Shown here: piece after piece, positions 19,975 to 62,608 of the stretch | How the letters are laid out: each line of letters opens with the position of its first letter | How positions within the stretch are numbered: the first letter of the stretch is position 1 | Assembly (NCBI GenBank): GCA_001783805.1 | Contig: MFNS01000001.1 | Coordinates: 649-64,648 of the forward strand | DNA: 64,000 nucleotides | Origin: Candidatus Levybacteria bacterium RIFCSPHIGHO2_01_FULL_40_16 | GTDB lineage: Bacteria; Patescibacteriota; Microgenomatia; Levybacterales; UBA12049 | Direction: 5' to 3' | Notes under the pieces: model-generated | The model's input: the letters and a program-made list of their open reading frames with translations, nothing else | Database searches by the model: none | Told to the model about the DNA's origin: nothing | Position numbers and translations under genes: made by a program

Positions 19975-20595
19975 AACCGTTGCATACTCCTTTATTACGG
20001 TAACATTGAACCAATTTTTATTTTCCACCAGAAGCTTATCCTTCTCTCCATAATCAAAATAACCATTCGCTATTCTCATTTTGCTGTTATCCATCAGGAA
20101 AATTATTTTTATAGTTTTTGAGTCTTCCCGATAGATCAAACTATTTTTATCTGCGAATATAAAATTTTCTTTGGAAAATTGTTTGAGATCTACTATTTTA
20201 TTTAAATCTGATTCCGTTGTTAGAATATCCAGACTATTAGCCAGAGGAGAGGAGAAAACCAAAAAGGTCAAGCTGAGCTGTTTTTCGTCGTATTTTATTC
20301 CTATTTTCTCATTTGACTGCTGAACTGAAGATTTTTCAATTCCTGTCCTTGAAAAGATAAAATATCCGGGTGAGTAAAATTCTCTGAATTGCCAATATTC
20401 TTGCGGATCAATGGATCCTCTCTGCTTGGTAGCGTTGATAAACTCGTTTAGAATAGCCTGCCTTTTGAAAGGGAAGACTTGGCTGGATATTTTTGGAGAA
20501 AGGAAAGTAAACAAGCTGATGATAGTAATTAAAATTAGGGCAAAGAAGGATAGATCGCTTCTAATAAGCCTTAAAATGCTTTGAGTTTTGCTCAT
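19900..20595 (-). CDS. Hypothetical protein with N-terminal TM anchor, antisense within the plus-strand cluster
   Basis: 231-aa ORF. Overlaps the 3' end of the 18460 gene by 75 nt and the 20581 start by 15 nt. No homology clues. Confidence 0.35.
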   Translation of the reverse strand: MSKTQSILRLIRSDLSFFALILITIISLFTFLSPKISSQVFPFKRQAILNEFINATKQRGSIDPQEYWQFREFYSPGYFIFSRTGIEKSSVQQSNEKIGIKYDEKQLSLTFLVFSSPLANSLDILTTESDLNKIVDLKQFSKENFIFADKNSLIYREDSKTIKIIFLMDNSKMRIANGYFDYGEKDKLLVENKNWFNVTVIKEYATVLNLIDFIYREIGSVFSLFYFQNLC

Positions 20596-42318: not shown

Positions 42319-43934
42319 AGAGACAATATCTAATTTTAATATTAATAATTCTATTGGCAGCTTTTCTAAGATTTTGGCAATTGGGTGAAAATCCCCCCTC
42401 GTTAACCTGGGATGAAGCAGCATGGGGATACAATGCTTATTCTTTGGGGATAGATGGAAAAGATGAATTTGGAAGATTTTTGCCGCTTAACTATTTAGAG
42501 TCGTTTGGTGATTTCAAACCACCGATGTATGCATACTTAGATATTATTCCCGTTAAGCTGTTTGGGTTGAATGAATTTGCAACAAGATTTCCTTCGGCAT
42601 TTTTTGGAGTATTGACAGTCCTAATCACTTATTTTTTAACAAAAAGAATTTTTTGGAATTCCAGATCAAGAGAAACGTACGCTTTACTTTCCGCTCTTTT
42701 TCTGGCAATTTCACCTTGGTATATTTTGTTGTCGCGAGCTGCATTTGAGGCAAATGTGGCGAATTTTTTTATAGTTTTTGGAGTTTTTGCATTTTTGGAA
42801 GGAGTGTTGAATAAAAAATGGCTTCTAGTCTTATCGGCAATTTCCTTCGCGCTTTCTTTTTACACATTTAACACGGCAAGGGTTGTTTCTCCGATTATGG
42901 TTATTTTACTTGCTATTATATTTAGGAAAAATCTCTGGAAAATAAAAAAAACAGTTATTCTCTCGGCAATTATTGGTTTTTTGGTTTTTTTGCCTACCTT
43001 CGGGTTTCTGCTAAGTCCGCAGGCGAGCCTAAGGTTTCAAGAAGTTAATATTTTTTCCGATACGGCAATCATTAAAGAGTCAAATCAAGAAATCGTCAAT
43101 GACAATAACGCTTGGTGGTCAAAGATAATCCACAATAGAAGATTTCTATATGGACTTGATTATCTAAAACACTATTTTGACAATTTTAATCCGGGGTTCT
43201 TATTTATAACAGGGGATGGTAACCCAAAGTTTTCTACACAAACAGTCGGGCAAATGTATGTCTGGGATATAATATTCTTTGTTTCCGGTTTAGTTTTTTT
43301 ATTCAAAAAAAAGGAGGGTAATTGGTGGATTATTCCTTCGTGGCTTTTGATAGGAATTATACCGGCTGCTTTGGCCAAAGAAACTCCTCATGCCTTAAGG
43401 ATTGAATCCTCCTTGCCTACATTTCAAATTATCGTAGCGTATGGCTTTATTCAATTAATAGATAAAATTAATAAATACAAAAAAACAATTATTTATTGCC
43501 TACTACTTCCTTTGTTTGTCAATTTTTTCTATTTTTTTCATGATTATTTTTATAGTTATAAGTATGAATATTCCGGTGAATGGCAGTATGGCTATAAACA
43601 ATCAATTGATTATGTAAAGTCAGTAGAGGATAATTATGATTTCATACAGGCATCAAATTATTTAGGCAGAGCTTATGTCTACTACCTTTTTTATACAAAA
43701 ACAGATCCGAATTATTTTAGAGAGACTGTAAATATAAGTAGAGACATATTTGGTTTCGTTTCGGTTAACAGTTTTGGGAAGTATATTTTTCCTCAAAATT
43801 TTAATCATAGCCTAAGCGCTACGAAGAAAGTTTTATATATAGATAATTCAAAAAATCTGCCGGGCAACGCTAAGGTATTGAAAAGATTTTACCTTCTGAA
43901 CGGCGAAGAAAAATTAGTCGCATACACAATATGA
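42315..43934 (+). CDS. PMT/ArnT-family GT-C glycosyltransferase (tandem paralog 3 of 4)
   Basis: 'LTWDEAAWGYNAYSLGIDGKDEFGRFLPLNY'. 539 aa. Confidence 0.75.
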   Translation: MKRQYLILILIILLAAFLRFWQLGENPPSLTWDEAAWGYNAYSLGIDGKDEFGRFLPLNYLESFGDFKPPMYAYLDIIPVKLFGLNEFATRFPSAFFGVLTVLITYFLTKRIFWNSRSRETYALLSALFLAISPWYILLSRAAFEANVANFFIVFGVFAFLEGVLNKKWLLVLSAISFALSFYTFNTARVVSPIMVILLAIIFRKNLWKIKKTVILSAIIGFLVFLPTFGFLLSPQASLRFQEVNIFSDTAIIKESNQEIVNDNNAWWSKIIHNRRFLYGLDYLKHYFDNFNPGFLFITGDGNPKFSTQTVGQMYVWDIIFFVSGLVFLFKKKEGNWWIIPSWLLIGIIPAALAKETPHALRIESSLPTFQIIVAYGFIQLIDKINKYKKTIIYCLLLPLFVNFFYFFHDYFYSYKYEYSGEWQYGYKQSIDYVKSVEDNYDFIQASNYLGRAYVYYLFYTKTDPNYFRETVNISRDIFGFVSVNSFGKYIFPQNFNHSLSATKKVLYIDNSKNLPGNAKVLKRFYLLNGEEKLVAYTI

Positions 43935-45586
43935 AAAAAATTATTTGGATATTATTAGCTGCAATTATTTTGGGAGGCGCATTGAGATTGTGGCAGCTTG
44001 GAAACATTCCTCCTTCTCCTGATTGGGATGAAGCTTCTCTAGGATATGATGCATATTCAATCCTCCAAACCGGGAAGGACCAATTTGGAGAGTTCTTGCC
44101 GGTTGTTCTTCGCTCTTTTAATGATTATAAGCCTGCATTCTACGCATATCTAGCCATACCTTCAATCTTTGTGTTTGGTTTAAATACTCTTGCAGTTAGG
44201 TTCCCTTCGGCTATTTTTGGAATATTATCAATCATTGCTGTATTTTATTTGGTAAAAGAAATATTTGAAAATTATAAATATAAAGATTATCTGGCCGTTA
44301 TTTCCAGTTTTTTACTGGCAATTTCTCCTTTGTCCATTCAATTTTCAAGGGTGGGGTTTGAGTCAAATGTCGGGACCGCCTTTAATATTTTTGCAGCTCT
44401 TTTTTTTCTGAAAGGTCTTAAAAAGCCATGGCTTTTGTCTCTTTCGGCAATTTGTGCGGGACTTGCTATCTACACTTATCAAAGCGAAAAAGTTTTCACA
44501 CCTTTACTTTTGCTCGTAATGGTTTTGCTGTTCAGGAAAAAACTATTTTCAATAAATAAAAAATATCTAGCTTCAGCTTTTGTTATTGGAGCGATAATTG
44601 TTCTGTCAATGATTTTTTATACATTTACGGACAAGTCTTCCTTAGAAAGACTGCGGGGAACGAGTGTTTTTTCTTCCCAGACAGAACTTCTTAAAGCAAA
44701 TTTAAGAAAATTGGATAGGGATCAGCAAAACAATGATAAGTTGGGATTATTTCTGGATAATAGGAGAATTGTTTATGCCAAGACTATTCTTCAAAGTTAT
44801 TTAACTCATTTTGATTTAAACTGGCTATTTATTCAGGGTGATATCGCCAGGCATCATGCTCATGGAATGGGGATAATGTATCTGTTTGAGTTTCCGCTTT
44901 TACTTTTGGGGATTTACAGCCTGCTATTCGGGCAATTCGATAGGAGAACAAAATTACTTATATTTTTATGGGTTCTAATTACTCCTATTCCGGCTTCGGT
45001 TACAATGGGAGTTCCTAGCGCGGTCAGGACGCTTAATTTTTTGCCGGCAGTTCAAATACTAACTGCTTTAGGAGTTTTGTCGGCAATAAAACTTGTATCA
45101 GATATTGAATATCAAGTATTAGGTTTACGATTAAAATATCTTATTTTTTTCTTTTCTTTTTGTTTTTTCATATTTAATTTTTCATATTATCTTAACCAAT
45201 ATTTTGTCCAATCAAATTATTATGACTCGGCCTACTGGCAATATGGCTATAAACAGGCAGTTGATGAGTCTTTGAAATTGCAAGATAAATATCAGAAAAT
45301 AATTGTATCGAACAATGAGTCAATGAACCAGTCATATATATATTTCTTATTTTATTTAAGATACCCGCCTCAAGATTATCAGAAAATTGTCAATAATAAA
45401 CCTAAAGGCACTTTTGATAATTCCTTTGGAGAGTATATTTTTAAGAAAATTGATTGGGGAAAAGACTCTTTAATAAAAAATGTTTTATATATTGCAAATC
45501 CAAACGAAATTCCGGATAGGGTACAAACAATAAAAACCATTTATAATTTAAATGGAACACCGGCAATTAAGATCGTCGGCACGTAG
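43931..45586 (+). CDS. PMT/ArnT-family GT-C glycosyltransferase (tandem paralog 4 of 4)
   Basis: 'PDWDEASLGYDAYSILQTGKDQFGEFLPVVL'. 551 aa. Carries the shared nucleotide module at 45089-45121. Confidence 0.75.
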   Translation: MKKIIWILLAAIILGGALRLWQLGNIPPSPDWDEASLGYDAYSILQTGKDQFGEFLPVVLRSFNDYKPAFYAYLAIPSIFVFGLNTLAVRFPSAIFGILSIIAVFYLVKEIFENYKYKDYLAVISSFLLAISPLSIQFSRVGFESNVGTAFNIFAALFFLKGLKKPWLLSLSAICAGLAIYTYQSEKVFTPLLLLVMVLLFRKKLFSINKKYLASAFVIGAIIVLSMIFYTFTDKSSLERLRGTSVFSSQTELLKANLRKLDRDQQNNDKLGLFLDNRRIVYAKTILQSYLTHFDLNWLFIQGDIARHHAHGMGIMYLFEFPLLLLGIYSLLFGQFDRRTKLLIFLWVLITPIPASVTMGVPSAVRTLNFLPAVQILTALGVLSAIKLVSDIEYQVLGLRLKYLIFFFSFCFFIFNFSYYLNQYFVQSNYYDSAYWQYGYKQAVDESLKLQDKYQKIIVSNNESMNQSYIYFLFYLRYPPQDYQKIVNNKPKGTFDNSFGEYIFKKIDWGKDSLIKNVLYIANPNEIPDRVQTIKTIYNLNGTPAIKIVGT

Positions 45587-45594
45587 GGGAACAT

Positions 45595-47097
45595 ATGGGA
45601 AGATTTATAAAAAAAGAGCTGTTGATATTGTATCTAATTATTTTTGTGGGTTTATTTTTAAGAGTGCAGGGAATTTTTACAAATTCTTTTGCTTTTACTT
45701 ATGATGTCGGGCGGGATATGCTTGCTGTTAGCGACATTGTCCATTTGGGTAAAATTCTCCTTATCGGTCAAACGACCGGGCTTCCCGGATTATTCTATGG
45801 GCCGTGGTGGTATTATATCCTAATTCCTCCATTTGTTTTGGCTTCCGGAGATCCGGCCGGCGTAGCATTATTTATAGCTTTAAGCGGGGCTGTAACTGTC
45901 CTTTTGGGATTTAAATTGGGGAAAGGTATTGGGGGAACAGTTCTTGGTTTAGTATTTGCTTCTTTTCTATCTTTTTCTCCTGTAATGGTTGGGCTAACAA
46001 GTCAGATTTGGAACCCCAACCTTATACCTCTTTTTATAATCATTTTTATGTACTGCCTTCATCGGATTTTCGTTTTCTTGGAGAAGAAAAAGGGTATAGG
46101 AGTAGCGTATCTCTTGTTTCTAGGCTTACTTTTGGGACTTATCTTAGATCTTGAAGTTGTCTTTGGTCTGCTTTTTCTTGTTGGCGCAATTATTTCAATA
46201 ATTTTATTTTTAGGTAAACGAATTAAATTGAAAGATTACCTATTTATTATTTTAGGATTTTTCATAATTATGTTTCCCCGCATAGTATTTGAATTAAGAC
46301 ATAATTTTTTAATGACTAATGCCCTGATGTCATTTGTTGGGAATACTTTGTCATCGTCAAATGGGAGTCAAAGCTCTTTTGCGCCTGTTAATAGTTTTAT
46401 TAGATTGTATGGGTTGTGGACGGATACTATTTCGATGGGAAACGTATTTTGGGGTTTTGTTTTATTATTTTTATTAGCATTTGGTTTAATTTCATTACAT
46501 AAAAAAATGGAAAAAGAGAAAAAGTTTTTTTTATTAATTAATTTAATAATTTTAACAACGTTTCTGATTGGTCTTAGTTTTTTTCCAGGAGCCATTTGGA
46601 GTCATTATATTGTAGGAATTCCGGTTCTTTACATTTTCATTCTAAGTATTGCAGTTTCGAAACTTCTACATCTTAAGAAAACAAGATTCATTATTGTTTT
46701 GGCATTTGTTATTCTATTGGCGTCATATGTGAATCCAATACGAATAATAAGTGAATACCAAAAGCCATTATGGGAAGGGGACGCGTCCGTGTATAGAAAT
46801 CAACTTGTAATTGTAGACTATATTTATAAAGAGGCTCAGGGAAAAGAGTTTAAATATGTAGTTTATACGCCGCCGGTTCACGATTACACATACAAGTATC
46901 TTTTTAAATGGTATGGTCTGAATAAATATAATTATTTACCAAGTAGCAATTCTCGTCTTGCATATTTTATCCTTGAACCGGATTTGCAATATCCCTCAAG
47001 ACTTACGGATTGGTTAAGATTAAGGGAAAAGGATGGCAGAATAATAAAAGCAGAAAAATTTAAAAGCGGAATTATTGTTCAGACGAGAATCCATTAA
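45595..47097 (+). CDS. Polytopic membrane protein with C-terminal soluble domain, putative GT-C-like
   Basis: 500 aa, ~11 TM helices. No confident family assignment. Confidence 0.5.
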   Translation: MGRFIKKELLILYLIIFVGLFLRVQGIFTNSFAFTYDVGRDMLAVSDIVHLGKILLIGQTTGLPGLFYGPWWYYILIPPFVLASGDPAGVALFIALSGAVTVLLGFKLGKGIGGTVLGLVFASFLSFSPVMVGLTSQIWNPNLIPLFIIIFMYCLHRIFVFLEKKKGIGVAYLLFLGLLLGLILDLEVVFGLLFLVGAIISIILFLGKRIKLKDYLFIILGFFIIMFPRIVFELRHNFLMTNALMSFVGNTLSSSNGSQSSFAPVNSFIRLYGLWTDTISMGNVFWGFVLLFLLAFGLISLHKKMEKEKKFFLLINLIILTTFLIGLSFFPGAIWSHYIVGIPVLYIFILSIAVSKLLHLKKTRFIIVLAFVILLASYVNPIRIISEYQKPLWEGDASVYRNQLVIVDYIYKEAQGKEFKYVVYTPPVHDYTYKYLFKWYGLNKYNYLPSSNSRLAYFILEPDLQYPSRLTDWLRLREKDGRIIKAEKFKSGIIVQTRIH

Positions 47098-47927: not shown

Positions 47928-48895
47928 AAATTTTGGTGACCGGTGGAGCAGGCTATATAGGAAGCATTATGACCAAACGTCTTCTCGAAAGAGGAGATGA
48001 GGTAGTTGTTGTGGATAGTTTGGAAAGGGGACATAGGGAGACTGTGGATCCGAAAGCTAAATTAATGATTGGTAATCTCTTAGATAAGGCATTTGTTTCT
48101 TTAGCGTTTCAAGAAAGTCGTTTTGATGCCGTTATTCATTTTTCAGGCTATATTTCCATGGGAGAATCTATGGAAAATCCATATCTCTATTTTCAAAACA
48201 ATATTTTTTCCTCGCTTAATTTAATGGAGGAGATGGTAAAAACAAAAACGGATAACTTAATCTTTTCTTCAACAGCAGGTGTTTATGGAAATCCCGTAAA
48301 ACTTCCTATTCCGGAGGATCATCCTAGGAATCCGGAAAATCCATATGGTGAGAGTAAGTTGATGGTTGAAAAATTAATGTCATGGTATCAAAAAACTCAT
48401 GGTTTAAATTCAGTAGCTCTAAGATATTTTAATGCTTCGGGGGCATCCCTTGACGGAAAGCTTGGGGAAAACCATAATCCTGAAAGTCATATTATTCCCA
48501 ATATAATGAAGGCTATTTTAGCAGGAGAAAGTTTTAAATTGTTTGGTACAGATTACAAAACAAAAGATGGGACTTGCGTGCGTGACTATATTCACGTGAT
48601 TGATCTGGTAGGAGCACATGTTTTAGCAATTGATAAATTAATGAAAGACAAAGGAATGTTTTCATATAATGTGGGAACCGGTAACGGATATTCCAACAGA
48701 GAAGTTATTGAGATGGCTAAAAGAATTTCGGGCAAAGATTTTCAAGTTGAGGAATCAGCGAGAAGACCCGGAGATGCGGATACATTGATAGCGGATGCTT
48801 CAAAAATAAAAGAAGAACTTGGTTTTAATCCTAAATATTCAGACCTTGAGACAATTGTTAATTCCGCTTGGCAGTGGCACAAGAAACAAAGTTGA
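47924..48895 (+). CDS. galE: UDP-glucose (or UDP-hexose) 4-epimerase
   Basis: 'MKILVTGGAGYIGS' Rossmann motif. Catalytic 'YGESK'. ~323 aa, typical GalE. Confidence 0.8.
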   Translation: MKILVTGGAGYIGSIMTKRLLERGDEVVVVDSLERGHRETVDPKAKLMIGNLLDKAFVSLAFQESRFDAVIHFSGYISMGESMENPYLYFQNNIFSSLNLMEEMVKTKTDNLIFSSTAGVYGNPVKLPIPEDHPRNPENPYGESKLMVEKLMSWYQKTHGLNSVALRYFNASGASLDGKLGENHNPESHIIPNIMKAILAGESFKLFGTDYKTKDGTCVRDYIHVIDLVGAHVLAIDKLMKDKGMFSYNVGTGNGYSNREVIEMAKRISGKDFQVEESARRPGDADTLIADASKIKEELGFNPKYSDLETIVNSAWQWHKKQS

Positions 48896-50028
48896 AAACA
48901 ATTAAATTTTGGAAAATTATTCAAGTAATTCTTCTTCTAATTATTATTTATAATTTCTCTTTGGTTGTCTGGCAAAATAAGGACAAATATCTATCAAAGA
49001 ATTATTGGCAGCAATATCCAAATTTAAAACAAATATATTATGGGTCAATCTACAAAAATAAGTACGGAACATGGGTGCACGATGAAATACTATATTCGTA
49101 TATAGGAGGAGCGTTAATCAAGGGAGCGAATCCAATATTGCTTAATCCGGAAGTTCCGCCGCTTGGAACATATCTTATTGGAGCTTCCATACTAATATTT
49201 AGCAATCAAAATGTTGTAATCGCTATTTCTGGAGCATTTGCTTTATTCTTAATGTATCTCATTGGCAAACAAATTTATAGTTCAAATTTCATTGCTCTTT
49301 TACCTCCATTTTTTTTAAGTTTTGAGCCTATTTTTAGAAATCAACTGGTTTACACGCCACTTCTTGATATTATGCAACTTACTTTTTTACTTTCGATTTT
49401 TTATTTTTTCAATAAATCAATTTCTGCAGACAATTATGGAAAATATTATTTGGTTACAATTGTTTTATTAGGCTTTTTTATATCAACAAAATTTTTTGGT
49501 ACAGGAATTGCTGTGGTTGGGGCTCTTATTATTACACTTCTTTTAAACTTTAACGAAAAACGTTTTATGTTTTTCCTCGGCATGATTCCCCTGTCTATTG
49601 TAATTTTATATTCAACCTACTTTAGAGTATTGATTGACGGATATCCATTTCACAAGTTTTTAGGTATTCAGAAGTGGATTTATTTATACAACACGGGTCA
49701 TCTTACCCAGCCTTTTACGCTTTGGCCCCTGTTATTTCTTAATCAATGGCATGTATGGTTTGGTGACAAACCCATAATAACAGATCCGCAGTGGTTAATA
49801 ACATGGCCCATATTCACGACCTTATCGCTTTTAACAATATTTTTATATTTTTTTATTTTTAGAACGAAGAAAAAAGAGGCTGAAATATTGTTCTTGTGGA
49901 TTGTAATGTATCTAATACTTATGAGTTTCGTTCAGATTTCCGCACGATATTTTGTTATACTTATTCCCATATTGTATCTCGTAGGCGTGTACGGTTTATT
50001 GGAGTTCATAAGATTTATTAAAAAATGA
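48868..50028 (+). CDS. Polytopic membrane protein (hypothetical, possibly glycan polymerase or GT-C-like)
   Basis: 386 aa, ~10 TM helices. Confidence 0.45.
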   Translation: MAVAQETKLKTIKFWKIIQVILLLIIIYNFSLVVWQNKDKYLSKNYWQQYPNLKQIYYGSIYKNKYGTWVHDEILYSYIGGALIKGANPILLNPEVPPLGTYLIGASILIFSNQNVVIAISGAFALFLMYLIGKQIYSSNFIALLPPFFLSFEPIFRNQLVYTPLLDIMQLTFLLSIFYFFNKSISADNYGKYYLVTIVLLGFFISTKFFGTGIAVVGALIITLLLNFNEKRFMFFLGMIPLSIVILYSTYFRVLIDGYPFHKFLGIQKWIYLYNTGHLTQPFTLWPLLFLNQWHVWFGDKPIITDPQWLITWPIFTTLSLLTIFLYFFIFRTKKKEAEILFLWIVMYLILMSFVQISARYFVILIPILYLVGVYGLLEFIRFIKK

Positions 50029-51092
50029 AGATTGCAGTTGACATATCTCCGCTCAAAAGTGAACATTATTTACAACATCGGGTAAGAGGAACGGGATTTT
50101 ATCTAGAGAATTTGAAAAGTTCGTTTTTAAAGTATTATTCTCACAATAAGTACATATTTTTTACTCGAGGTGAAAAATTACCCAATGACATCGATGTTGT
50201 TCATTATCCTTATTTTGAACCATTTTTTCTGACGCTTCCGGTATTCTCCAAAAATAAAACAATTGTTACGGTTCATGACCTAACTCCCTTAGTCTTCCCC
50301 GATCATTTTAAATCGGGATTAAAAGGCAATCTCAAATGGCAAATTCAAAAACTGGCATTAAGGAATGCGGGTACGATAATTACCGATTCTGAATCTTCAA
50401 AAAAAGATATCATTAAATACGCTGGGATTAGCTCAGCAAAAATTAGGGTTGTATATTTGGCCGCAGGAGAAGAATTCGAAAGATTTAAGACGGATGATTT
50501 AAGAGTAAGGAAGATAAAAGAAAAATATCATTTGCCGGAGAAATTTTCGTTGTATGTTGGAGATGCAACTTGGAATAAAAATTTACCAAGATTAATAGAA
50601 GCTGCCTCTAAAGCTAAAGCGCCGCTTGCAATGGTAGGAAAAGCCTTAATTGATAAAGATATTGACATTCATAATCCTTGGAATGAGGATTTGGTAAGAA
50701 TTCAAGAGTTGTCAGAAAAAGACAAAAATGTTTTCCGTCTGGGTTTTATCCCTCAAGAAGATTTAGTTGCTCTATATAATACAGCGACCCTTTTTGTTAT
50801 GCCCTCCATTTATGAAGGCTTTGGGTTGCCAATCCTTGAAGCAATGAGCTGCGGATGCCCTGTGGTGGCGTCAAAAGGAGGCTCCTTGCCAGAGGTGGTG
50901 GGGGAAGCCGGAAGATTCGTAGATCCTTACGATGTTGAAAGTATTGCTAATGGAATTAAAGAAGTGTTTAATGATCCAAGTTTGCAAAAAGAACTTTCAC
51001 AAAAGGGAATAATTCAAGCAAAAAAATTCACTTGGGAAAAAACAGTGGAGAAAACAATGGGTGTATACAAAAGCGTTGTAGCAAATATTTAA
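50025..51092 (+). CDS. GT4 (GT-B) glycosyltransferase
   Basis: 'EGFGLPILEAMSCGCPVVASKGGSLPEVVGEAG' EX7E motif. Confidence 0.85.
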   Translation: MKIAVDISPLKSEHYLQHRVRGTGFYLENLKSSFLKYYSHNKYIFFTRGEKLPNDIDVVHYPYFEPFFLTLPVFSKNKTIVTVHDLTPLVFPDHFKSGLKGNLKWQIQKLALRNAGTIITDSESSKKDIIKYAGISSAKIRVVYLAAGEEFERFKTDDLRVRKIKEKYHLPEKFSLYVGDATWNKNLPRLIEAASKAKAPLAMVGKALIDKDIDIHNPWNEDLVRIQELSEKDKNVFRLGFIPQEDLVALYNTATLFVMPSIYEGFGLPILEAMSCGCPVVASKGGSLPEVVGEAGRFVDPYDVESIANGIKEVFNDPSLQKELSQKGIIQAKKFTWEKTVEKTMGVYKSVVANI

Positions 51093-51095
51093 GGC

Positions 51096-52043
51096 CTACT
51101 TCTTCGCAGCATTTGAGTTCTTCATAATACTTTTAACAATGTATTTGGGCCTCTGCTTTACTTCTTCAAATATTTTTCCGATATATTCTCCTAAAACGCT
51201 TATGCCCAAAAGCTGGATTGCTCCTACAAATAATACGGAAATTAATATCGTAGTTGATCCTTGAGGAGTATTCGGTAATAAAATTCTTAATATTATTTGT
51301 ACGATTATTGCGGTAAGAGCAATGAGAAAAACAACAAAAGAAACCATTGTTATAATTTGAAGAGGAACATAAGAAAAAGAGAATATTCCTTTTGTAGCCC
51401 AATTTATATTTTTCAGTAAATTATTGGTTGTTTTCCCGAACATTCTTTCAGGGCGCATATAGGGAATTCCCATTTGTTTGAATCCAACCCATGCCCGTAG
51501 TCCTCTTAAGAATCTATCTCTTTCAGGAAAAGTTTTTAGTATTTGAACAACTTTATTGTCGATTAAAGAAAAATCGCCGGCATCCAAAGGGATTTTGATG
51601 TAAGACATTTTATGAAATACCCGGTAGAAGAGTTTGTACAGTATTGTCATGTAAAGAGGGGTTTCTCTTTTTGTCCGTACTCCGTATACGACATCGTATC
51701 CTTCAAGCCATTTTCGGTAGAATTTTTCAATTATTTCCGGAGGATCTTGTAAATCTCCGTCAAGCAGAACTACGGCATCCGATTTGGCAATCTCCATCCC
51801 GCTGGTAAAAGCCATTTGGGAGCTAAAATTCCTTGAGTGATTAATTCCTATTACGCGAGAATCTTTTGAAACTATTTTTCTCAAAACATCCTCTGTATTG
51901 TCAGGACTTCCATCATTTACAAAAATTATTTCATAGTCCACACCAATTTTTTTAAATACTTTCGTAAGTCTGTCATGCATTATGGGAATCGCTTGGGCAT
52001 CTTTATAGCAGGCAATAATCGCTGATATTTTTTTATTTTTCAT
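51096..52043 (-). CDS. GT2 polyprenyl-phosphate glycosyltransferase with C-terminal TM helices (GtrB/ArnC-like)
   Basis: 'ISAIIACYKDAQAI', 'IFVNDGSPDNT', 'DGDLQDPPE'. Two C-terminal TM helices. Confidence 0.8.
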   Translation of the reverse strand: MKNKKISAIIACYKDAQAIPIMHDRLTKVFKKIGVDYEIIFVNDGSPDNTEDVLRKIVSKDSRVIGINHSRNFSSQMAFTSGMEIAKSDAVVLLDGDLQDPPEIIEKFYRKWLEGYDVVYGVRTKRETPLYMTILYKLFYRVFHKMSYIKIPLDAGDFSLIDNKVVQILKTFPERDRFLRGLRAWVGFKQMGIPYMRPERMFGKTTNNLLKNINWATKGIFSFSYVPLQIITMVSFVVFLIALTAIIVQIILRILLPNTPQGSTTILISVLFVGAIQLLGISVLGEYIGKIFEEVKQRPKYIVKSIMKNSNAAKK

Positions 52044-52060
52044 ATTCTAGCTTCTACCCC

Positions 52061-52573
52061 TCATCTTCTAAGGTTAACATACCACGGCTTATCGCTTTTT
52101 ATCATATCATCCAGAAGGCTAGATATTTCTTCCATCTTTTCTGGCCACTTCGCCTTAATGTTTTTAAATATACGTATTATTTTCCTATCTTCTTCTGCCC
52201 AGTGAGAAATTCCATCATGTGCATAATCTTTATCTCTTCCGGAACCTATAAGTTTGACCGGTATTTTTTCATGGTTAATATAATTTCTTATTGTCTCAAA
52301 AGGCCTATATAGCAAGAAAGTAGTTATAGAATAAACAATTGGGATTTTACCCTCCAAACTTAATCCAACTGCTATGCCCATCATAGCTTGTTCTGAAGCG
52401 CCTGTATTTATAAACCGCTGTGGAAAATCTCTCCTTATATAGTCAAACATCTTATATCCCAAATCACCCACTACTAGCCAAATTTTGTCGTTTTTTGCCA
52501 TTTGCTTATATAATTCATAGGCAAACCATCCCCGCATACTATGATGTCTGTATTTGATATCTAGTTTTTTCAT
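52061..52573 (-). CDS. Transketolase-family C-terminal subunit, Pyr (pyrimidine-binding) domain only; lacks the TKC domain
   Basis: 'GASEQAMMGIAVGLSLEGKIPIVYSITTFLL'. The start ATG overlaps the upstream stop (ATGA). The ORF-track start at 52624 is probably too long. Confidence 0.65.
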   Translation of the reverse strand: MKKLDIKYRHHSMRGWFAYELYKQMAKNDKIWLVVGDLGYKMFDYIRRDFPQRFINTGASEQAMMGIAVGLSLEGKIPIVYSITTFLLYRPFETIRNYINHEKIPVKLIGSGRDKDYAHDGISHWAEEDRKIIRIFKNIKAKWPEKMEEISSLLDDMIKSDKPWYVNLRR

Positions 52574-53301
52574 AATTCTAAAGATTTTATTGCTTCTTCG
52601 TAATTTTGCTGAGTCATCGTGCAATAATGAGCGTCTTGATCCTTGAGAAAAGGAAGTTGATCGCTACGGGTCATGGCAAAAATTATTTCCGGTTTGCCTT
52701 TTGTAGTAGATTTCAATGCGCTATCTATGGCTTTTGTATCATGTCCGTCTATTTCTTTAACTTTATACCCAAATCCTGAAAATTGTTCAATGAGAGAAGG
52801 GGAGGACTGATCGTATCCCGCCCATCCATTATAGTTTACTATTATTTTAAGATTATATATTTTCTTCTCTTTTGCTATTCGTAAAGCTTCCCAAATACTT
52901 CCCTCGGCGCATTCACCATCGGAAATCATGCAATACGCATTTTTTTTATGATTGGCAATTGCCATCCCCAATGCTATCGGTAGTCCCTGGCCAAGGCTGC
53001 CTGTTGAAACATGAATGTTTAGTTTTTTATTTCGATCAGGATGTATGTATAGTTTTTTTATGTCATTTTTTTGTATCAACTTATTTTTTTCCAATACTAC
53101 GTATAAAGCTATTCCTGCATGTCCATTTGAGAGGATAAATTTTTCGTCCGGCTTTTTGATTTTGTAGACTCTATCTATTAAGTCTATGGTTGAAAGACAG
53201 GAGCCGATATGAGAAAGATGAGATTCATGACTTATTTCAAGGACTCTTCGCCTTATGCTTTTTTGTTCTTTAGATAATGATTTTATGTTAAAGGTATTCA
53301 T
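52570..53301 (-). CDS. Transketolase-family N-terminal subunit (TPP-binding)
   Basis: 'GHAGIALYVVLE', 'GSLGQGLPIALGMA', 'DGECAEGSIWEA'. Confidence 0.75.
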   Translation of the reverse strand: MNTFNIKSLSKEQKSIRRRVLEISHESHLSHIGSCLSTIDLIDRVYKIKKPDEKFILSNGHAGIALYVVLEKNKLIQKNDIKKLYIHPDRNKKLNIHVSTGSLGQGLPIALGMAIANHKKNAYCMISDGECAEGSIWEALRIAKEKKIYNLKIIVNYNGWAGYDQSSPSLIEQFSGFGYKVKEIDGHDTKAIDSALKSTTKGKPEIIFAMTRSDQLPFLKDQDAHYCTMTQQNYEEAIKSLEL

Positions 53302-53302
53302 T

Positions 53303-54256
53303 TTAAAGGAGGTTAGACTTTCTATACCAAAGATAGGTTTTTCTTAGGCCGTCTTCTAAGGAAAATTTTGGTCTCCAGTTTAGCGTCTTTTTTGTTTTTG
53401 AAATATCTGCTACCCAATGGGGAGTATCCCACAATCTTTTTGGAAATGCACCTTTTTCAACTTTGACTTTTTTTCCCGTAACTTTGAAAAGAGTTTTTAC
53501 TACCTCATCATTCGTATATTCTTTTCCTGTTCCCATGTTTAATATTTTTCCTGACATTTTTTTGCCTTTAGACATAGCTTTGATATAAATATCTACAATA
53601 TCCTCAATGTAAATAAAATCTCTTCTTTGAGTGCCTGCTGTAAGCTTAATTGTCTTGTTTTCGATAACCGCTTTTATTATGGTTGGTATAAAACGCTTAT
53701 TTTCTTCGTAAGGTCCGTAAACGGAAAAAGGTCTTAGTGTGACGATAGGCTTTTGATATTCTCTTGCGAATACCTGACACAAAAGCGATGCGGATGCTTT
53801 TGTGGCAGCATAAAAACTTATTGGTTCCAATAAGTCCATTTCCCTCATGGGATTATTTTTAATTCCATATTCGGAAGATGATCCCGTGTTTATAAAAATA
53901 TCGTAATTTATATTCTTAGAAGCAATTAATAAATTTAAAGTGCCTGCAATATTTGCTTCTATCATTTGCGATACTGCTTCTTGGTCTCTGTATGCGCTGT
54001 ACGTCGCTAAGTGAATAATTATCGATGGATTAATCTTGCGAATTACTTTTTGTAGATTAGTTTTATCTAAAAGATCAACTTTATAAAGATTGATTTTAGT
54101 AAGGACATTTTTTAATTGTCCAAGGTCAGTAGAATCTTTGATAATAAGATTAATATTTTTATATCCTAGATTCAGGAGCTTGTTAATTATATTTGTGCCA
54201 ATAAATCCCGCACCACCCGTGATTAAGATGCCTTTTCGTGGTAGAATATCTTTCAT
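53303..54256 (-). CDS. NAD-dependent sugar epimerase/dehydratase (extended SDR)
   Basis: 'ILITGGAGFIGTN' and catalytic 'YAATKA'. 317 aa. Confidence 0.8.
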   Translation of the reverse strand: MKDILPRKGILITGGAGFIGTNIINKLLNLGYKNINLIIKDSTDLGQLKNVLTKINLYKVDLLDKTNLQKVIRKINPSIIIHLATYSAYRDQEAVSQMIEANIAGTLNLLIASKNINYDIFINTGSSSEYGIKNNPMREMDLLEPISFYAATKASASLLCQVFAREYQKPIVTLRPFSVYGPYEENKRFIPTIIKAVIENKTIKLTAGTQRRDFIYIEDIVDIYIKAMSKGKKMSGKILNMGTGKEYTNDEVVKTLFKVTGKKVKVEKGAFPKRLWDTPHWVADISKTKKTLNWRPKFSLEDGLRKTYLWYRKSNLL

Positions 54257-55157
54257 GGTTGATATTATATGTGCTTTGTGCGGCCAAAAGCAACAAATTA
54301 AAGTGCTTTACGAAGCAACCCTTGACAAGAGAAATCTTACCAAGAAAACGTATTCTGCTCGGCGTATGCCGGACAAAGTTCACTACAGAATTCTTAAATG
54401 CGTAAGATGTAGTCTAGTTTTCTCTTCTCCGATTTTTCCGGCTGAAAAGCTGTCAAAATTTTATAGAAAGAGTGTATGTAGTTATGGAGATCAAATCCCA
54501 TATTTAATTAAAACTTACCTTAAAATAGTAGAGCAAATCAAGAAAGATCTACCGAAAAATCCAAAAATTTTAGAAGTTGGCTGTGGAAATGGATTTTTTC
54601 TTAAAGCTCTTATCGATTTAGGTTTCACAAAAAATGTTTTTGGAGTTGAGCCGAGCTCTAAAATGGTTTCAGAATCAAATTCGGCTTTGAAAGACAAAAT
54701 CAAGATCAATGTTTTTAAATCAAGCCTATTTCCAAAAAATAGTTTCAATCTGATTCTCTGCTTCCACACCTTAGACCATATGTTTGATCCTGATGAATTT
54801 GTTAGGGGTGCTTATTCAATGCTTAAGAAAAATGGATACGCTGCTGTGGTTGTGCACGATACGCAGGGTTTATCGGTAAGATTATTTGGGGAAAGATCGG
54901 CTATTTTTGATATAGAGCATATTTATTTATTTAATAAAAAAACTTTGAAAAAAATATTCGCGCGCAGCGGTTTCAAAATTATCGGAGTGTCAAATCTTGT
55001 TAATAGCTACCCCTTAAACTATTGGGTGCAAATGAGTGGTTTCCCTAATGTTGTAAAAAAATTTGTTAAATATATTTTTGACGTATTCATGATAGGTAAA
55101 AAAGAGATATCTATTCCGGCCGGAAACATTGCGCTTATTACTAAGAAGAATGTATGA
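54255..55157 (+). CDS. Class I SAM-dependent methyltransferase with N-terminal Cys4 zinc ribbon
   Basis: 'CALCGQ...CVRCSLVF' zinc ribbon. 'ILEVGCGNGFFL' SAM motif I. The ORF-track start at 54090 overlaps the antisense epimerase, so the ATG at 54255 (CATG shared with the epimerase start) is preferred. Confidence 0.7.
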   Translation: MVDIICALCGQKQQIKVLYEATLDKRNLTKKTYSARRMPDKVHYRILKCVRCSLVFSSPIFPAEKLSKFYRKSVCSYGDQIPYLIKTYLKIVEQIKKDLPKNPKILEVGCGNGFFLKALIDLGFTKNVFGVEPSSKMVSESNSALKDKIKINVFKSSLFPKNSFNLILCFHTLDHMFDPDEFVRGAYSMLKKNGYAAVVVHDTQGLSVRLFGERSAIFDIEHIYLFNKKTLKKIFARSGFKIIGVSNLVNSYPLNYWVQMSGFPNVVKKFVKYIFDVFMIGKKEISIPAGNIALITKKNV

Positions 55158-56490: not shown

Positions 56491-57045
56491 ATGGAATTGA
56501 TAACTTTAGAAAATAAAAACAAAGTTAAATTGATAAAAGATGTAGTAATGCATCCTTATAAAGTTAATGAAGATTCTTCGGGAATTTTGATTGAGACAAT
56601 GAGGAGGGATTGGGACGATGTCTATGGTCAAGGACGGGAATTCTTCATGCAGTATTATTCGGAAACTCCTTCGGGCATGATTAGGGACGAAGGTGTTTGG
56701 CACTACCATCCGACTACACAAGATGATCGGTTTTCAGTTGTAAAAGGAGAAATAGTAGTAGCAATTAGCGATAACAGGAAAGACTCAGAGACTAAAGGAC
56801 TCTTGAACCTTTTTTATATAAATGCAAGAAAAAATCCATACATGGTACTAATTCCCAGGAAAACTTTGCATGGATTTATGGTTGTCTCCAAAGAACCGGC
56901 AATTCTAATTAATTTCCCCACGGGTTTGTATAATCCTAAAGAAGAAGGAAGAATTCCATATCAAGACGTTCAGGTAAAGACGTCGGACGGTACTGTTTTT
57001 TCTTGGGATTTAGTACGCAAAGAGTTTTCTGATCTATCTTCTTAA
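56491..57045 (+). CDS. Cupin-fold sugar epimerase/isomerase (dTDP-4-dehydrorhamnose 3,5-epimerase RmlC-like)
   Basis: 184 aa. 'VNEDSSGILIETMRRDW' (D.RG.F.E-like) and 'GMIRDEGVWHYHP' (RGLH-like) segments. Confidence 0.5.
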   Translation: MELITLENKNKVKLIKDVVMHPYKVNEDSSGILIETMRRDWDDVYGQGREFFMQYYSETPSGMIRDEGVWHYHPTTQDDRFSVVKGEIVVAISDNRKDSETKGLLNLFYINARKNPYMVLIPRKTLHGFMVVSKEPAILINFPTGLYNPKEEGRIPYQDVQVKTSDGTVFSWDLVRKEFSDLSS

Positions 57046-57901: not shown

Positions 57902-59131
57902 TCAGGGATATATTCCAAAGAGCGGATATATTTCCCAAATGCTGTCTGTGTAGACACAGTTAAATATTACGCCAATTATGATAAGCGTAATTGCGGTTTT
58001 TGATAATTTTGGGGAAAGAGAAGGAATTAAAAGTAAAAAGATAAAAGGAAGAAAATCCAAAGTATAACGGTATCCAATCTGAGCATAGCCTATGCTGTAC
58101 CAAAGGAATACAGGAAACGCCAGCGCAATACTTGCCAAGCTGGCAGAAAGCGTATAAATACCTTTTCTAAATCTGCAAAGCAATAAAAGAAATAGCGGTG
58201 AAGTAAACCAAATGGCTGCTCCCCAGGGATTTAACTTGAGATATGGGAATTTGAGAACGAATCCATCATCGGGATCTTTTAATAATGGCTCAGGGGACAT
58301 AAACAAGAAGCTGTAAAGATTAGTCGGGATATGCATCATACTTGCGTCTCCATATTTGAGATTTGCTCCGATAGGAAGATCGCGGATTGAAATATTATAG
58401 TTATATCCGGTTTCAAAAATTGAATGAAAACGTCGATTATTATATGCGCCCAAAAGAGATAATGCAAGAATAATTGGTATTAACATTATTAAAAATTGTT
58501 TGATAGAAAACCTTTTTTGTATTAATTCGAAAAAGAAAAAAACAACAGCTAGCATTAAAGTAAGTCTCGTCATGGTTGCCAGTCCTATAAATAAGCCGAT
58601 TAATAGCGGATGTTTTTTAGCTAGATATGCCCAAATTGCCAGTAGAATAAATGGTACTCCCAATGCTTCTACTTGATAAGCAGTGATGTTGATTACGCTT
58701 GAGCTAAATAGAACAGTTGAGATAACAAAAAAGAGAGAAAGCCATAATGAATCAAGAGAGCTAAATTTGAATTTTTTCGAGATAAAGTAAACCGCTATAA
58801 AAGATGTGATCATTGATCCTACTCCAATGGTCACTTGCGGAAAAGAATCTTTGAAAAAAAAGGCAAAAGGCATCAGCAGAATTGAAGAAAGAGGACCAAA
58901 ATAGACATAAAAATTGTTGTAGTAAGCAGAAATGTCTCTTATGGGCAAATTATAGATGGGGAGTGCTATGTGACCGTTAACGAATTGATATGAGAGGCTG
59001 ATAAGAACTTTATCGAACCCTCTTTGTCCAACGGTTAGATAAAGATAGGTTGAGTATAAGGAAAATAAAGAAAATAAAACAAAAAGCATTAACTTGCCGT
59101 GGCGTCTTAAAAAAGAAAGAAAATCTTGCAT
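57902..59131 (-). CDS. Polytopic membrane protein (hypothetical, GT-C-like candidate)
   Basis: 409 aa, ~11 TM helices. Confidence 0.5.
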   Translation of the reverse strand: MQDFLSFLRRHGKLMLFVLFSLFSLYSTYLYLTVGQRGFDKVLISLSYQFVNGHIALPIYNLPIRDISAYYNNFYVYFGPLSSILLMPFAFFFKDSFPQVTIGVGSMITSFIAVYFISKKFKFSSLDSLWLSLFFVISTVLFSSSVINITAYQVEALGVPFILLAIWAYLAKKHPLLIGLFIGLATMTRLTLMLAVVFFFFELIQKRFSIKQFLIMLIPIILALSLLGAYNNRRFHSIFETGYNYNISIRDLPIGANLKYGDASMMHIPTNLYSFLFMSPEPLLKDPDDGFVLKFPYLKLNPWGAAIWFTSPLFLLLLCRFRKGIYTLSASLASIALAFPVFLWYSIGYAQIGYRYTLDFLPFIFLLLIPSLSPKLSKTAITLIIIGVIFNCVYTDSIWEIYPLFGIYP

Positions 59132-59252: not shown

Positions 59253-61021
<1,769 letters not shown>

Positions 61022-61022
61022 T

Positions 61023-61790
61023 ATGTCTGAAAAAAAAGTTGTTTTAATCACCGGGGGAAATTCTGGATTAGGAAAAATTATTGCCCAAAATTTAATTTCA
61101 AAAGGATATGTAGTGTACGGAACCTCGCGTAATGCTGAATTGCCCAAAATTGCGGGCATGCATTTTTTAAAATTAAATATAACCTCGGATACGGAAACAA
61201 AAGACGCAATTAACGAAATCATAAAGAAGGAAAAACGAATTGACATTATTATCAATAATGCAGGGATAACGTTAACAGGTCCGACGCTTGGATTTTCTGC
61301 AGAAGATTTTAAAAATATTTTGGACACCAACCTTATTGGACCGTTTCGTTTGCTTAAGGCAGCCTTATCGCTTCCAAATAAACCAAAGCTGGTAATAAAT
61401 ATTACATCTCTTAACGGATTTCTATCTTTGCCAAATTTTGGACTATATTGTGCATCTAAATTTGCCATGGAAGGCCTAGGATTGGCGCTTCGATATGAAT
61501 TGGGCCCCTTAACAAAAGTGGTAAATGTTGCGCCTGGGGCTTTATTTATGGAATCAGCAAAAAAAATGCCTCACAAGCCGGCGAGAGAAAAATTTCCATT
61601 ACTAAGTTGGCTAATGCCCCTTACCTTTCCGGAAGATGTTTCGGTAGTGATTGAAAAATTAATTAATGCATCATCTGTGCCCCCAAGAGTTTTAGTTGGT
61701 AGAGATGCTTATATTATTAACTTAATGCAGAAAATACTACCATCCTCAATTTTTGACAGAATAGTGTTTTATATTTGGAGAAAAAAATAA
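61023..61790 (+). CDS. Short-chain dehydrogenase/reductase (SDR)
   Basis: 'KVVLITGGNSGLGK' and 'YCASKFAMEG'. Confidence 0.8.
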   Translation: MSEKKVVLITGGNSGLGKIIAQNLISKGYVVYGTSRNAELPKIAGMHFLKLNITSDTETKDAINEIIKKEKRIDIIINNAGITLTGPTLGFSAEDFKNILDTNLIGPFRLLKAALSLPNKPKLVINITSLNGFLSLPNFGLYCASKFAMEGLGLALRYELGPLTKVVNVAPGALFMESAKKMPHKPAREKFPLLSWLMPLTFPEDVSVVIEKLINASSVPPRVLVGRDAYIINLMQKILPSSIFDRIVFYIWRKK

Positions 61791-61792
61791 CA

Positions 61793-62608
61793 ATGATTAT
61801 AGTTAATCTTACCGGAGGTTTGGGTAACCAAATGTTTCAATATGCATTTGGCAAGGCAATTGCAATTAAGCACAAGACGAGTCTCAAGCTTCACTTTACC
61901 AACGCATTATTTAATACGCAAAGATCTTATGAGCTGGACGTTTTTAACATTTCGGCCGATATAGCAACCGCAGAAAATTTGCGAAAACTTGGTATCATGC
62001 AAAATAACATTATCAATCGTCTTCTATATCTTCTTGATGAAAGGTATGGGATTCAATTCAACAAACATATTGTGACGCAAGGGTATCCATATAATTTTAA
62101 TCCAAGTTATCTTTCTGCAAAAAATGATTCATATATTCAGGGTTACTGGGCGGACGAACGTTATTTTAAGGAAATAGAAGATATAATAAGAAAAGAGTTT
62201 ACGCCAAAGAAAAGACTTGATGAGAGAAATCAAAAAATACTTAGCCTAATACAGACATCGACATCTGTAAGTATTCATGTAAGAAGAGGAGATTACATAA
62301 CTAACAAAGCGAATGTATTGAAATTTATTGGCCTTAATTACTATTTAAATTCTATTAACGAAATTAAAAAGCTAATACCCAATCCTGTATTTTTTGTTTT
62401 TTCCGATGATATTCCATGGTGCAAAAATAACTTAAAACAAATTTTAAATAAAGCTTATTTTATTGATTATAATAAGGGAAAAGAATCTTATAAGGATATT
62501 GTGTTGATGGGCACTTGTAAACACAATATTATTGCTAATAGTACGTTTAGCTGGTGGGGCGGGTGGCTGAATCAAAATATAAACAAGATATGCATTAGAC
62601 CAAACTGA
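61793..62608 (+). CDS. GT11 alpha-1,2-fucosyltransferase
   Basis: 'MIIVNLTGGLGNQMFQYAFG' (GT11 motif I), 'HVRRGDY' and 'NSTFSWWGGWL'. The ORF-track start at 61775 overlaps the SDR, so the ATG at 61793 (immediately after the SDR stop) is preferred. Confidence 0.85.
   Translation: MIIVNLTGGLGNQMFQYAFGKAIAIKHKTSLKLHFTNALFNTQRSYELDVFNISADIATAENLRKLGIMQNNIINRLLYLLDERYGIQFNKHIVTQGYPYNFNPSYLSAKNDSYIQGYWADERYFKEIEDIIRKEFTPKKRLDERNQKILSLIQTSTSVSIHVRRGDYITNKANVLKFIGLNYYLNSINEIKKLIPNPVFFVFSDDIPWCKNNLKQILNKAYFIDYNKGKESYKDIVLMGTCKHNIIANSTFSWWGGWLNQNINKICIRPN

Follow-up and report, generated by a model that had tools for sequence, protein, structure and literature searches.

Within a 64,000-nucleotide stretch of Candidatus Levybacteria bacterium RIFCSPHIGHO2_01_FULL_40_16 (contig MFNS01000001.1; hereafter the window), we find a compact cassette of ~4 kb and five genes. 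These encode a methyltransferase (MT), an extended short-chain dehydrogenase/reductase (SDR), the two subunits of a transketolase-family enzyme, and a glycosyltransferase of family 2 (GT2) of the GtrB/ArnC type. The transketolase pair comprises a PP subunit, to which thiamine diphosphate (ThDP) and Mg would bind, and a Pyr subunit that lacks the TKC domain; this loss is real and ancient and is not a truncation. We hold with high confidence that the cassette is a single functional unit. Our proposal for its role, to which we give somewhat less than an even chance, is that it makes a modified sugar that is delivered as a polyprenyl-phosphate-linked donor to periplasmic GT-C glycosyltransferases.

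The five-gene cassette and its conservation

Four of the genes lie co-directionally on the minus strand between 51096 and 54256, on which the list of open reading frames (ORFs), our reading of the sequence and an earlier note on this DNA all agree. The operon begins with the SDR (53303–54256; 317 aa; PF01370 (Epimerase), 173 bits) and continues with the ThDP/Mg-binding PP subunit (52570–53301; 243 aa; PF00456 and PF13292 (DXP_synthase_N)), the Pyr-only subunit (52061–52573; 170 aa from its ATG; PF02779 alone) and the GT2 (51096–52043; 315 aa; PF00535 (Glycos_transf_2)). Read directly from the sequence, the SDR stop is separated from the PP ATG by a 1-nt gap (TAAAATG), the PP stop and the Pyr start share an ATGA overlap, and 17 nt lie between the Pyr stop and the ATG of the GT2, which is preceded by the purine-rich GGGGTAGAAG. 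The tight coupling and the single ATGA overlap described previously therefore stand, but the accompanying '2-nt gaps' were inexact, the real ones being 1 nt and 17 nt. Called mechanically, the Pyr ORF begins at a TTG (52624); close homologues are all 170 aa long, which matches the ATG start.

The fifth gene, which the earlier note overlooked when it described the module as four genes, is a divergent one and encodes a Zn-ribbon plus class I S-adenosylmethionine (SAM) methyltransferase (54255–55157, plus strand; 300 aa; PF13489 and others). That the four minus-strand genes belong to one conserved unit was nonetheless right. The start codons of the SDR and MT genes overlap within the palindrome CATG (window positions 54254–54257), leaving no room for an intergenic promoter, and the same 2-nt divergent overlap is found in two related loci, L001 and L002 (6339/6340). 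A promoter and terminator scan of the operon gave promoter-like matches not above shuffled expectation and no minus-strand terminator-like site within it.

A genome scan seeded with a 10-sequence alignment returned 80 homologous loci, all from metagenome-assembled genomes (MAGs) or single-amplified genomes (SAGs). All ORFs at 82 loci were scored against the four window proteins and all flanking ORFs were clustered. PP and Pyr homologues are each present in 81/82 loci, the SDR in 58–68, the GT2 in 61–66 and the MT in 52; after these five members, the next commonest gene family reaches only 11/82. The GT2 gene directly follows the Pyr gene in 45/82 loci, and in ~21 loci an MT homologue lies between the SDR and PP genes. 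Around the three homologues that we inspected the order SDR, PP, Pyr, GT2 is repeated, with flanking genes that vary by locus. The loci span more than 10 phyla, including many phyla of the Candidate Phyla Radiation (CPR), Omnitrophota, Elusimicrobia, Planctomycetes, Ratteibacteria and Eisenbacteria, together with Cloacimonas, Bacteroidales, Actinomarina, Maricaulis, Thaumarchaeota and Euryarchaeota. The search for homologous modules in other genomes, suggested in the earlier note, thus finds them in dozens of genomes with constant order and varying neighbours, and because the same gene order recurs in so many genomes the arrangement is well beyond chance.

Several MAG contigs (L009, L011, L013, L014, L028, L047–L049, L054 and L066) are labelled 'uncultured Gammaproteobacteria/Pseudomonadales', and their cassette proteins are 64–71% identical to those of the window; their gene content looks CPR-like, so these taxonomic labels may be unreliable. 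A distant marine clade (L072–L074, L076, L079, L081 and L084; Thaumarchaeota, Maricaulis, Planctomycetaceae TMED10, Euryarchaeota TMED129 and Actinomarina MAGs) carries a smaller pair, with a PP subunit of ~213 aa and a Pyr subunit of ~157–158 aa. Here the pair sits in glycan clusters with short RmlD-like SDRs, a DegT aminotransferase, a GMD-type dehydratase, FkbM methyltransferases and a PfkB kinase, and no GtrB-like GT2 is found in these marine loci.

The two-subunit transketolase

The Pyr subunit ends where its Pyr domain ends, at ~170 aa, as had been claimed from the sequence. PF02779 covers residues 13–169 of 170, and Pfam returns no PF02780 match. A TKC profile hidden Markov model (HMM), for which 56 long C-subunits and E. 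coli TktA were used, detected no TKC domain in six-frame searches of the window and of 86 related loci, while both positive controls, L087 and L088, were detected with the same profile; a separate TKC ORF adjacent to the pair, which the earlier note had named as the finding that would speak against it, is hence absent. The short form is also the norm among relatives. The best 120 of 3392 database relatives are nearly all 170 aa long, and among 1.84 billion cluster representatives searched the top ~40–60 are 150–180 aa long, with ~300-aa C-subunits that carry TKC appearing only under ~44% identity. In a 31-sequence alignment every member ends just past a conserved L-x-R. In a related but differently organised transketolase-like protein of 427 aa, P0240, PP and Pyr are joined in a single chain, again without TKC.

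An AlphaFold (AF2) model of the Pyr subunit shows a complete Pyr domain (pLDDT 95) that matches nothing but the Pyr domain when superposed on larger chains (TMq 0.82–0.88, TMt 0.24–0.48). For both subunits the best match in the PDB is ChTK, the split transketolase of Carboxydothermus hydrogenoformans (PMC7661550): PP matches its N chain (6YAK, E 1e-22) and Pyr its C chain (6YAJ, E 2e-19), the latter alignment being confined to the Pyr domain. The pair does not have the three-domain PP-Pyr-TKC architecture of classical transketolases, and it scores far under the curated cutoffs (best NCBIfam transketolase model: 146 bits for PP, with NF004559, against a cutoff of 488, and 54 bits for Pyr). By its sequence and catalytic residues it is assigned to the transketolase family.

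Residue conservation was assessed by aligning 82 family members to E. coli TktA, whose numbering we use unless stated. Residues H26, H66, H100, H261, D155, G156, E160, N185, G114 and L116 are at least 98% conserved, and E411 (E61 in the window), F434 and H473 (H124) are 100% conserved. In window numbering, F86 of Pyr is invariant and the PP histidines H31, H61, H87 and H225 are 98–99% conserved. The ThDP-Mg motif, GDG-X(25–30)-N, is present as SDGECAEG...NYNG, with D128 (D155), G129 and N158 (N185) in 99% of members; together with PF00456 this bears out the earlier assignment of a ThDP-binding transketolase N-subunit. With the catalytic and cofactor residues intact, the enzyme should be catalytically competent, and we consider it probable that it is an active C2-transferring transketolase. 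The phosphate-binding set (R358, S385, H461 and R520) is only half retained. R358 corresponds to R14 in a gapless manual register (ASRKAS...ADL against SMRGWF...GDL) and is nearly invariant, and R520, 77% conserved, is R170, the final residue of the Pyr subunit. Gly takes the place of H461 in 96% of members, and S385 has been lost. D469 is 78% conserved. The pair thus departs from classical transketolases in its missing TKC domain, its incomplete phosphate-binding set and its low family scores.

Such an active site could also belong to an ordinary, miniaturised pentose-phosphate transketolase, linked to the other genes by chance or supplying a precursor such as sedoheptulose-7-P or a pentose phosphate, and not acting on a glycan sugar at all. 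The conserved catalytic residues, D469 and the two phosphate-binding arginines would all suit such an enzyme. So would the lack of a second transketolase-like ORF anywhere in the 64-kb window and the streamlined state of CPR genomes. In many archaea and thermophiles the housekeeping transketolase is a split one, and the TKC domain is considered dispensable for catalysis. The ChTK study regards TKC as a later evolutionary addition (PMC7661550). Against this stand the loss of H461 and S385 from the phosphate site, the fusions of related transketolases to reductases described below, and the strict operonic linkage to SDR, MT and GtrB-like GT2 genes across many phyla while the neighbours vary. Planctomycetes, Maricaulis and Bacteroidales, moreover, normally possess a full-length tkt. 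The context is a glycan cluster in 82/82 loci, in place of the pentose-phosphate setting that the earlier note had raised as a possible refutation. Taken together, we think a housekeeping role improbable.

The choice of donor bears on a second alternative, in which the enzyme resembles DXS or YerE: pyruvate or another 2-oxo acid would be decarboxylated, an acetyl or hydroxyethyl unit transferred and the product reduced by the SDR; yersiniose and aldgarose have a C-acetyl or 1-hydroxyethyl branch of the kind that would result. A ThDP enzyme accompanied by a reductase follows the logic of YerE/YerF, and the ThDP sugar-branching enzymes with experimental support all use 2-oxo acids. PP also matches DXP_synthase_N (E 1e-10), E1_dh and TPP_enzyme_C, and the Pyr model can be superposed both on DXS and on transketolase (TMq 0.85–0.88). 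The sequences are nevertheless nearer to transketolase (146 bits for NF004559 against 37 bits for dxs, with 6YAK and 6YAJ as the best structural matches), and the invariant H100 and H473 point the same way. In engineered Geobacillus stearothermophilus transketolase (TKgst) both of these histidines must be replaced to favour pyruvate (PMC11997939), so their retention favours a hydroxylated, glycolaldehyde-type donor; on balance, use of a 2-oxo acid appears distinctly unlikely. From the same engineering work, an S385D/H462I/R521H variant opens the enzyme to long unphosphorylated aldoses (PMC11997939). The partial loss of the phosphate site in the present family resembles that direction of change, which is supportive but not decisive.

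Partner enzymes and informative relatives

The SDR carries a Rossmann TGGAGFIG (GxxGxxG), S127/128 and Y148-x3-K152, the hallmarks of an extended SDR. Its nearest structures in the PDB are UDP-Glc and UDP-GlcA 4-epimerases and dTDP-Glc dehydratases. The segment GSSSEYG of the window protein aligns to VSTDEVYG of dTDP-glucose 4,6-dehydratase, with Ser-Ser in place of Asp-Glu, and SSSEYG is conserved throughout the family of cassette SDRs. This missing Asp/Glu motif speaks against a 4,6-dehydratase or a decarboxylase; the earlier description as an epimerase/dehydratase was therefore sound as to the extended SDR fold but probably not as to dehydration. NAD-dependent SDRs carry an Asp at the end of beta-2, and Arg/Lys there indicates NADP(H). 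The family consensus at this position has Arg/Lys (LILRKES; LIIKDS in the window), which argues for NADP(H) use and hence for a reductase. The SDR is probably an NADP(H)-dependent ketoreductase or a 4-oxidoreductase.

The link between transketolase and carbonyl reductase is clearest in relatives from elsewhere. Plasmids were searched by tblastn, which found no Pyr-only member; all plasmid matches are under 35% identical and have TKC. One of them belongs to a related cluster in a cultured organism, on plasmid NZ_CP054609.1 of Paenibacillus cellulosilyticus KACC 14175 (44–52 kb; L091, 2816–12306). Its genes run in the order rfbF (glucose-1-P cytidylyltransferase), rfbG (CDP-glucose 4,6-dehydratase), a 437-aa C-methyltransferase of the TylC3 type (Methyltransf_13/23/14), a 635-aa SDR::Transketolase_N fusion, a Pyr+TKC subunit, a TylF-type O-methyltransferase and glycosyltransferases that include a hexapeptide-GT2 and a GT2-GtrA fusion. 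Between the Transketolase_N part of this fusion and the PP subunit of the window, identity is 33% (E 1e-44), and the Paenibacillus cluster and the window share the NGW variant of the Mg-loop in the Transketolase_N/PP protein and GSxxEYG in the SDR. The two are thus alike in having genes for a C-methyltransferase-type methyltransferase, an SDR, both transketolase parts and a GT2. They differ in that the Paenibacillus SDR is fused to the Transketolase_N part, its Pyr subunit retains TKC, its methyltransferase has Methyltransf_14, rfbF and rfbG are included, and the GT2, a GtrA fusion, lies on the opposite strand and has only weak similarity to that of the window. A second tie to a carbonyl reductase is seen in P0213, where a Pyr+TKC subunit is fused to a zinc alcohol dehydrogenase (Zn-ADH). 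The best indirect indication that transketolases of this branch may act together with a carbonyl reductase on keto-sugars linked to nucleoside diphosphates (NDP) comes from these fusions and from the position of the Paenibacillus genes behind a 4,6-dehydratase.

Two further relatives were noted. The closest relative of ~300 aa, P0156, comes from a metagenomic locus (L087, 1176–5795) with the order SDR, YerE/ALS-like ThDP enzyme (597 aa), Transketolase_N, Pyr(+TKC) and a 384-aa GT2; this sugar cluster holds two different ThDP carboligases. On an Azospirillum plasmid, a related transketolase pair lies beside B12-radical-SAM proteins, a methyltransferase, a kinase and an RmlD-like SDR.

The MT of the window (54255–55157) belongs to a family of ~300-aa cassette proteins with which it shares the motif FSARR-PDK-HYR-KC. 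In this family C6, C9, C49 and C52 are invariant, as is the pair E221-H222. A four-Cys zinc domain precedes a class I SAM core, and the register is that of NDP-hexose C-methyltransferases: profile positions 38–248 align to residues 43–253 of TcaB9/KijD1. A BLAST alignment to the Paenibacillus TylC3/TcaB9-type C-methyltransferase, itself verified with Pfam, begins at the CxxC (E 1e-15), and E221-H222 aligns with an E-H pair of that homologue and may correspond to the catalytic pair E224/H225 of TcaB9. The MT model (pLDDT 81) finds its best whole-length folds in the NDP-sugar C3-methyltransferases KijD1, MtmC and TcaB9 (TMq 0.57–0.61, against 0.42–0.51 for generic methyltransferases). Pfam matches neither Methyltransf_13 nor the C-terminal Methyltransf_14 in the MT, only generic methyltransferase families, and the protein is 300 aa long as against ~410–440 aa in those enzymes. 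Judged by sequence and model, then, the MT is similar to the C-methyltransferases of NDP-sugars, whose substrates are NDP-4-keto sugars.

The GT2 is the sole one of the GtrB type in the window. It aligns over residues 5–306 to Synechocystis GtrB (5EKP; E 2e-71) and over residues 4–311 to ArnC (7e-39), and it matches the NCBIfam models for PgfS (247 bits) and ArnC (156 bits) end to end, below their equivalog cutoffs. A hydropathy scan, a crude predictor, places two transmembrane segments in the C-terminal part, starting at ~221 and ~262, and no membrane segments are predicted for SDR, PP, Pyr or MT. The earlier identification of a membrane-anchored polyprenyl-phosphate glycosyltransferase is thus upheld, and the GT2 very likely makes a polyprenyl-P-monosaccharide. 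Downstream, a GT4 gene (50025–51092, plus strand) converges on the GT2 gene with 3 nt between the stops (window 51090–51098), and no terminator-like structure is found in this 3-nt convergence.

Candidate consumers of the loaded sugar, of the kind that partners a GtrB-type enzyme, are plentiful nearby. At least 12 GT-C-type genes (PMT_2, PTPS_related, YfhO, GT87-like) are present in the window. They include tandem paralogous arrays at 18460–28713 and 39066–47097, encoding membrane proteins of ~480–570 aa (PMT_2/PTPS_related), a YfhO-type gene (34939–37185) and a GT87-like gene (57902–59131, minus strand). Large polytopic membrane proteins flank 58/82 cassette loci. Neither a 500-aa ORF at 45595–47097 nor a 386-aa ORF at 48868–50028 gave a Pfam match. 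Other neighbours are an RmlC-like cupin (56491–57045), a GDP-fucose-synthase-like SDR (59268–60200; motif GTVCAYP) and a GT11 fucosyltransferase-like gene (61775–62608). The cupin and the GDP-fucose-synthase-like SDR imply that NDP-4-keto-6-deoxyhexoses exist in this cell.

The proposed pathway and known systems

In the pathway that we propose, the MT, SDR, PP, Pyr and GtrB-like GT2 genes would form a self-contained, horizontally mobile unit. By analogy with split transketolases, PP and Pyr would assemble into an alpha2beta2 ThDP enzyme that is naturally without TKC. From a ketose phosphate or from hydroxypyruvate this enzyme would take a hydroxylated two-carbon unit (glycolaldehyde/ketol), which it would join to the carbonyl of a sugar intermediate. 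The likeliest acceptor would be an NDP-4-keto(-6-deoxy)hexose from outside the cassette, yielding a C-hydroxyacetyl branch; a sugar aldehyde, leading to chain extension, would be a less probable one. The NADP(H)-type SDR could then reduce the new ketone or the remaining ring ketone, and the C-methyltransferase-like MT would add a methyl group. The GT2 would move the finished sugar to polyprenyl phosphate, and a neighbouring GT-C enzyme would use the product. What the analysis shows directly is which genes make up the cassette, how widely they are conserved, their domain architecture, the intactness of the catalytic residues and the GtrB-type character of the GT2. We infer every chemical step of this scheme, as well as the step order and the nature of donor, acceptor and nucleotide. 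The earlier suggestion of an unusual sugar loaded on polyprenyl phosphate fits the GtrB-type GT2 and the many GT-C genes, and its product could be either chain-extended or branched. We put at a little less than even the chance that the two-carbon unit is accepted by the carbonyl of a nucleotide sugar, with a branched or extended sugar as the product. We hold still more tentatively to the fullest form of the proposal, in which a minimal PP+Pyr transketolase has been recruited to C-glycolylate, or extend by two carbons, a nucleotide- or lipid-linked sugar, giving with the reductase, the C-methyltransferase-like enzyme and the GtrB-type loader an undescribed branched or higher-carbon surface sugar of CPR bacteria, Omnitrophota and further uncultivated lineages.

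Several observations weigh against this pathway. We know of no proof that a ring ketone serves as acceptor for any transketolase. The likeness of the MT to C-methyltransferases is weak (23% identity) and the C-terminal domain is absent. The active site of the pair is so canonical, with D469, R358 and R520 all retained, that it would also suit ordinary aldose phosphates as acceptors. The GT2 is closest to Synechocystis GtrB, which we take to be a UDP-glucose enzyme; this would also fit a plain hexose that is loaded first and modified later. There is no 4,6-dehydratase or nucleotidyltransferase gene in the 64-kb window, and such genes lie within 6 kb of the cassette in only 5–7/82 loci. These counts rule out either enzyme as a hidden member of the module and mean that a keto-sugar acceptor must come from outside the cassette, which has neither gene. 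Finally, ketol transfer by split pairs in sugar clusters, which the earlier note took as established, has been proposed, as the addition of hydroxyacetyl to keto sugars in the miharamycin, amipurimycin and 13 Streptomyces clusters, but no split transketolase of a sugar cluster has been demonstrated in vitro (PMC12247030).

Some of these observations would also suit a remodelling of the sugar on its lipid carrier, with the GT2 making a polyprenyl-P-hexose that the soluble SDR, transketolase and MT then modify at the cytoplasmic face. The similarity of the GT2 to a UDP-glucose-using GtrB and the scarcity of nucleotidyltransferase and dehydratase genes would both fit. The C1 phosphate of such a lipid-linked sugar could be anchored by R358 and R520, which would place the distal end of the sugar at the ThDP. 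Lipid-level chemistry has precedents in the DprE1/DprE2 epimerisation of decaprenyl-P-ribose and the ArnD deformylation of Und-P-Ara4FN, although for a ThDP enzyme acting on a lipid-linked sugar we know of none. Loss of TKC and of the PP-Pyr linker might admit a bulky substrate, the ChTK authors having suggested that linker loss provides more room. None of the four tailoring proteins, however, is predicted to have a membrane segment, the MT is similar to NDP-sugar-binding enzymes, and the Paenibacillus relative stands directly behind rfbF/rfbG and beside a bona fide NDP-sugar C-methyltransferase. We therefore judge modification on the lipid carrier to be unlikely, though not negligibly so.

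Should the proposed role in sugar modification prove true, the cassette would offer the first enzymatically tractable transketolase in glycan sugar tailoring, a role hitherto proposed for a few antibiotic clusters. It is small enough for direct reconstitution in E. coli, and the Paenibacillus plasmid cluster would be a tractable model for transketolase-dependent sugar tailoring. A natural two-domain transketolase would bear on the evolution of the transketolase, DXS and E1 enzymes and on the purpose of TKC, and its small size suits biocatalysis. The cassette also points to a widespread surface sugar in CPR bacteria, whose envelopes are essentially uncharacterised and whose genomes give large GT-C arrays to extracytoplasmic glycosylation. 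In the literature searched, of which coverage is incomplete, neither this cassette nor any transketolase without TKC proved to be described.

The enzyme of known structure that best matches the pair is ChTK. Both lack the long PP-Pyr linker and both have the same catalytic residues, and the ChTK C chain consists of Pyr (1–162) and TKC (164–312), so that the window Pyr subunit ends at that very boundary. ChTK is the pentose-phosphate enzyme of its cell, whereas the window pair sits in a glycan cassette; unlike ChTK, the window pair is without H461 and S385, and its PP subunit is shorter (243 aa against ~280). The split transketolases of the miharamycin, amipurimycin and Streptomyces clusters, which we compared by their descriptions, likewise stand beside an oxidoreductase in a sugar-tailoring cluster, but those clusters belong to actinomycete secondary metabolism and are not tied to a polyprenyl-phosphate GT2.

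Two other groups of systems share parts of the proposed logic. In YerE/YerF (yersiniose A), ErwE and alpha-KADH2 (aldgamycin, kibdelomycin), a ThDP carboligase and a ketoreductase convert an NDP-4-keto-deoxyhexose into a C-branched sugar of a surface glycan. Those carboligases, which use 2-oxo acids, are members of either the decarboxylase superfamily (ALS-like and FAD-containing) or the E1 alpha/beta superfamily, whereas the window enzyme is of the transketolase family with residues that favour a hydroxylated donor. In the GtrB/GtrA/Gtr(type), ArnC/ArnT, CsbB/YfhO and PgfS/PgfM systems, a GT2 with C-terminal transmembrane segments loads polyprenyl phosphate and a GT-C enzyme uses the sugar on the outside, as we propose here. 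No ThDP enzyme occurs in any of the GtrB, ArnC, CsbB or PgfS systems, and where Arn tailoring employs ArnA, ArnB and ArnD, the tailoring set of the window is an SDR, a transketolase and an MT. The cassette thus combines ThDP-dependent sugar tailoring with a GtrB-type lipid-linked donor system, each of which is already known.

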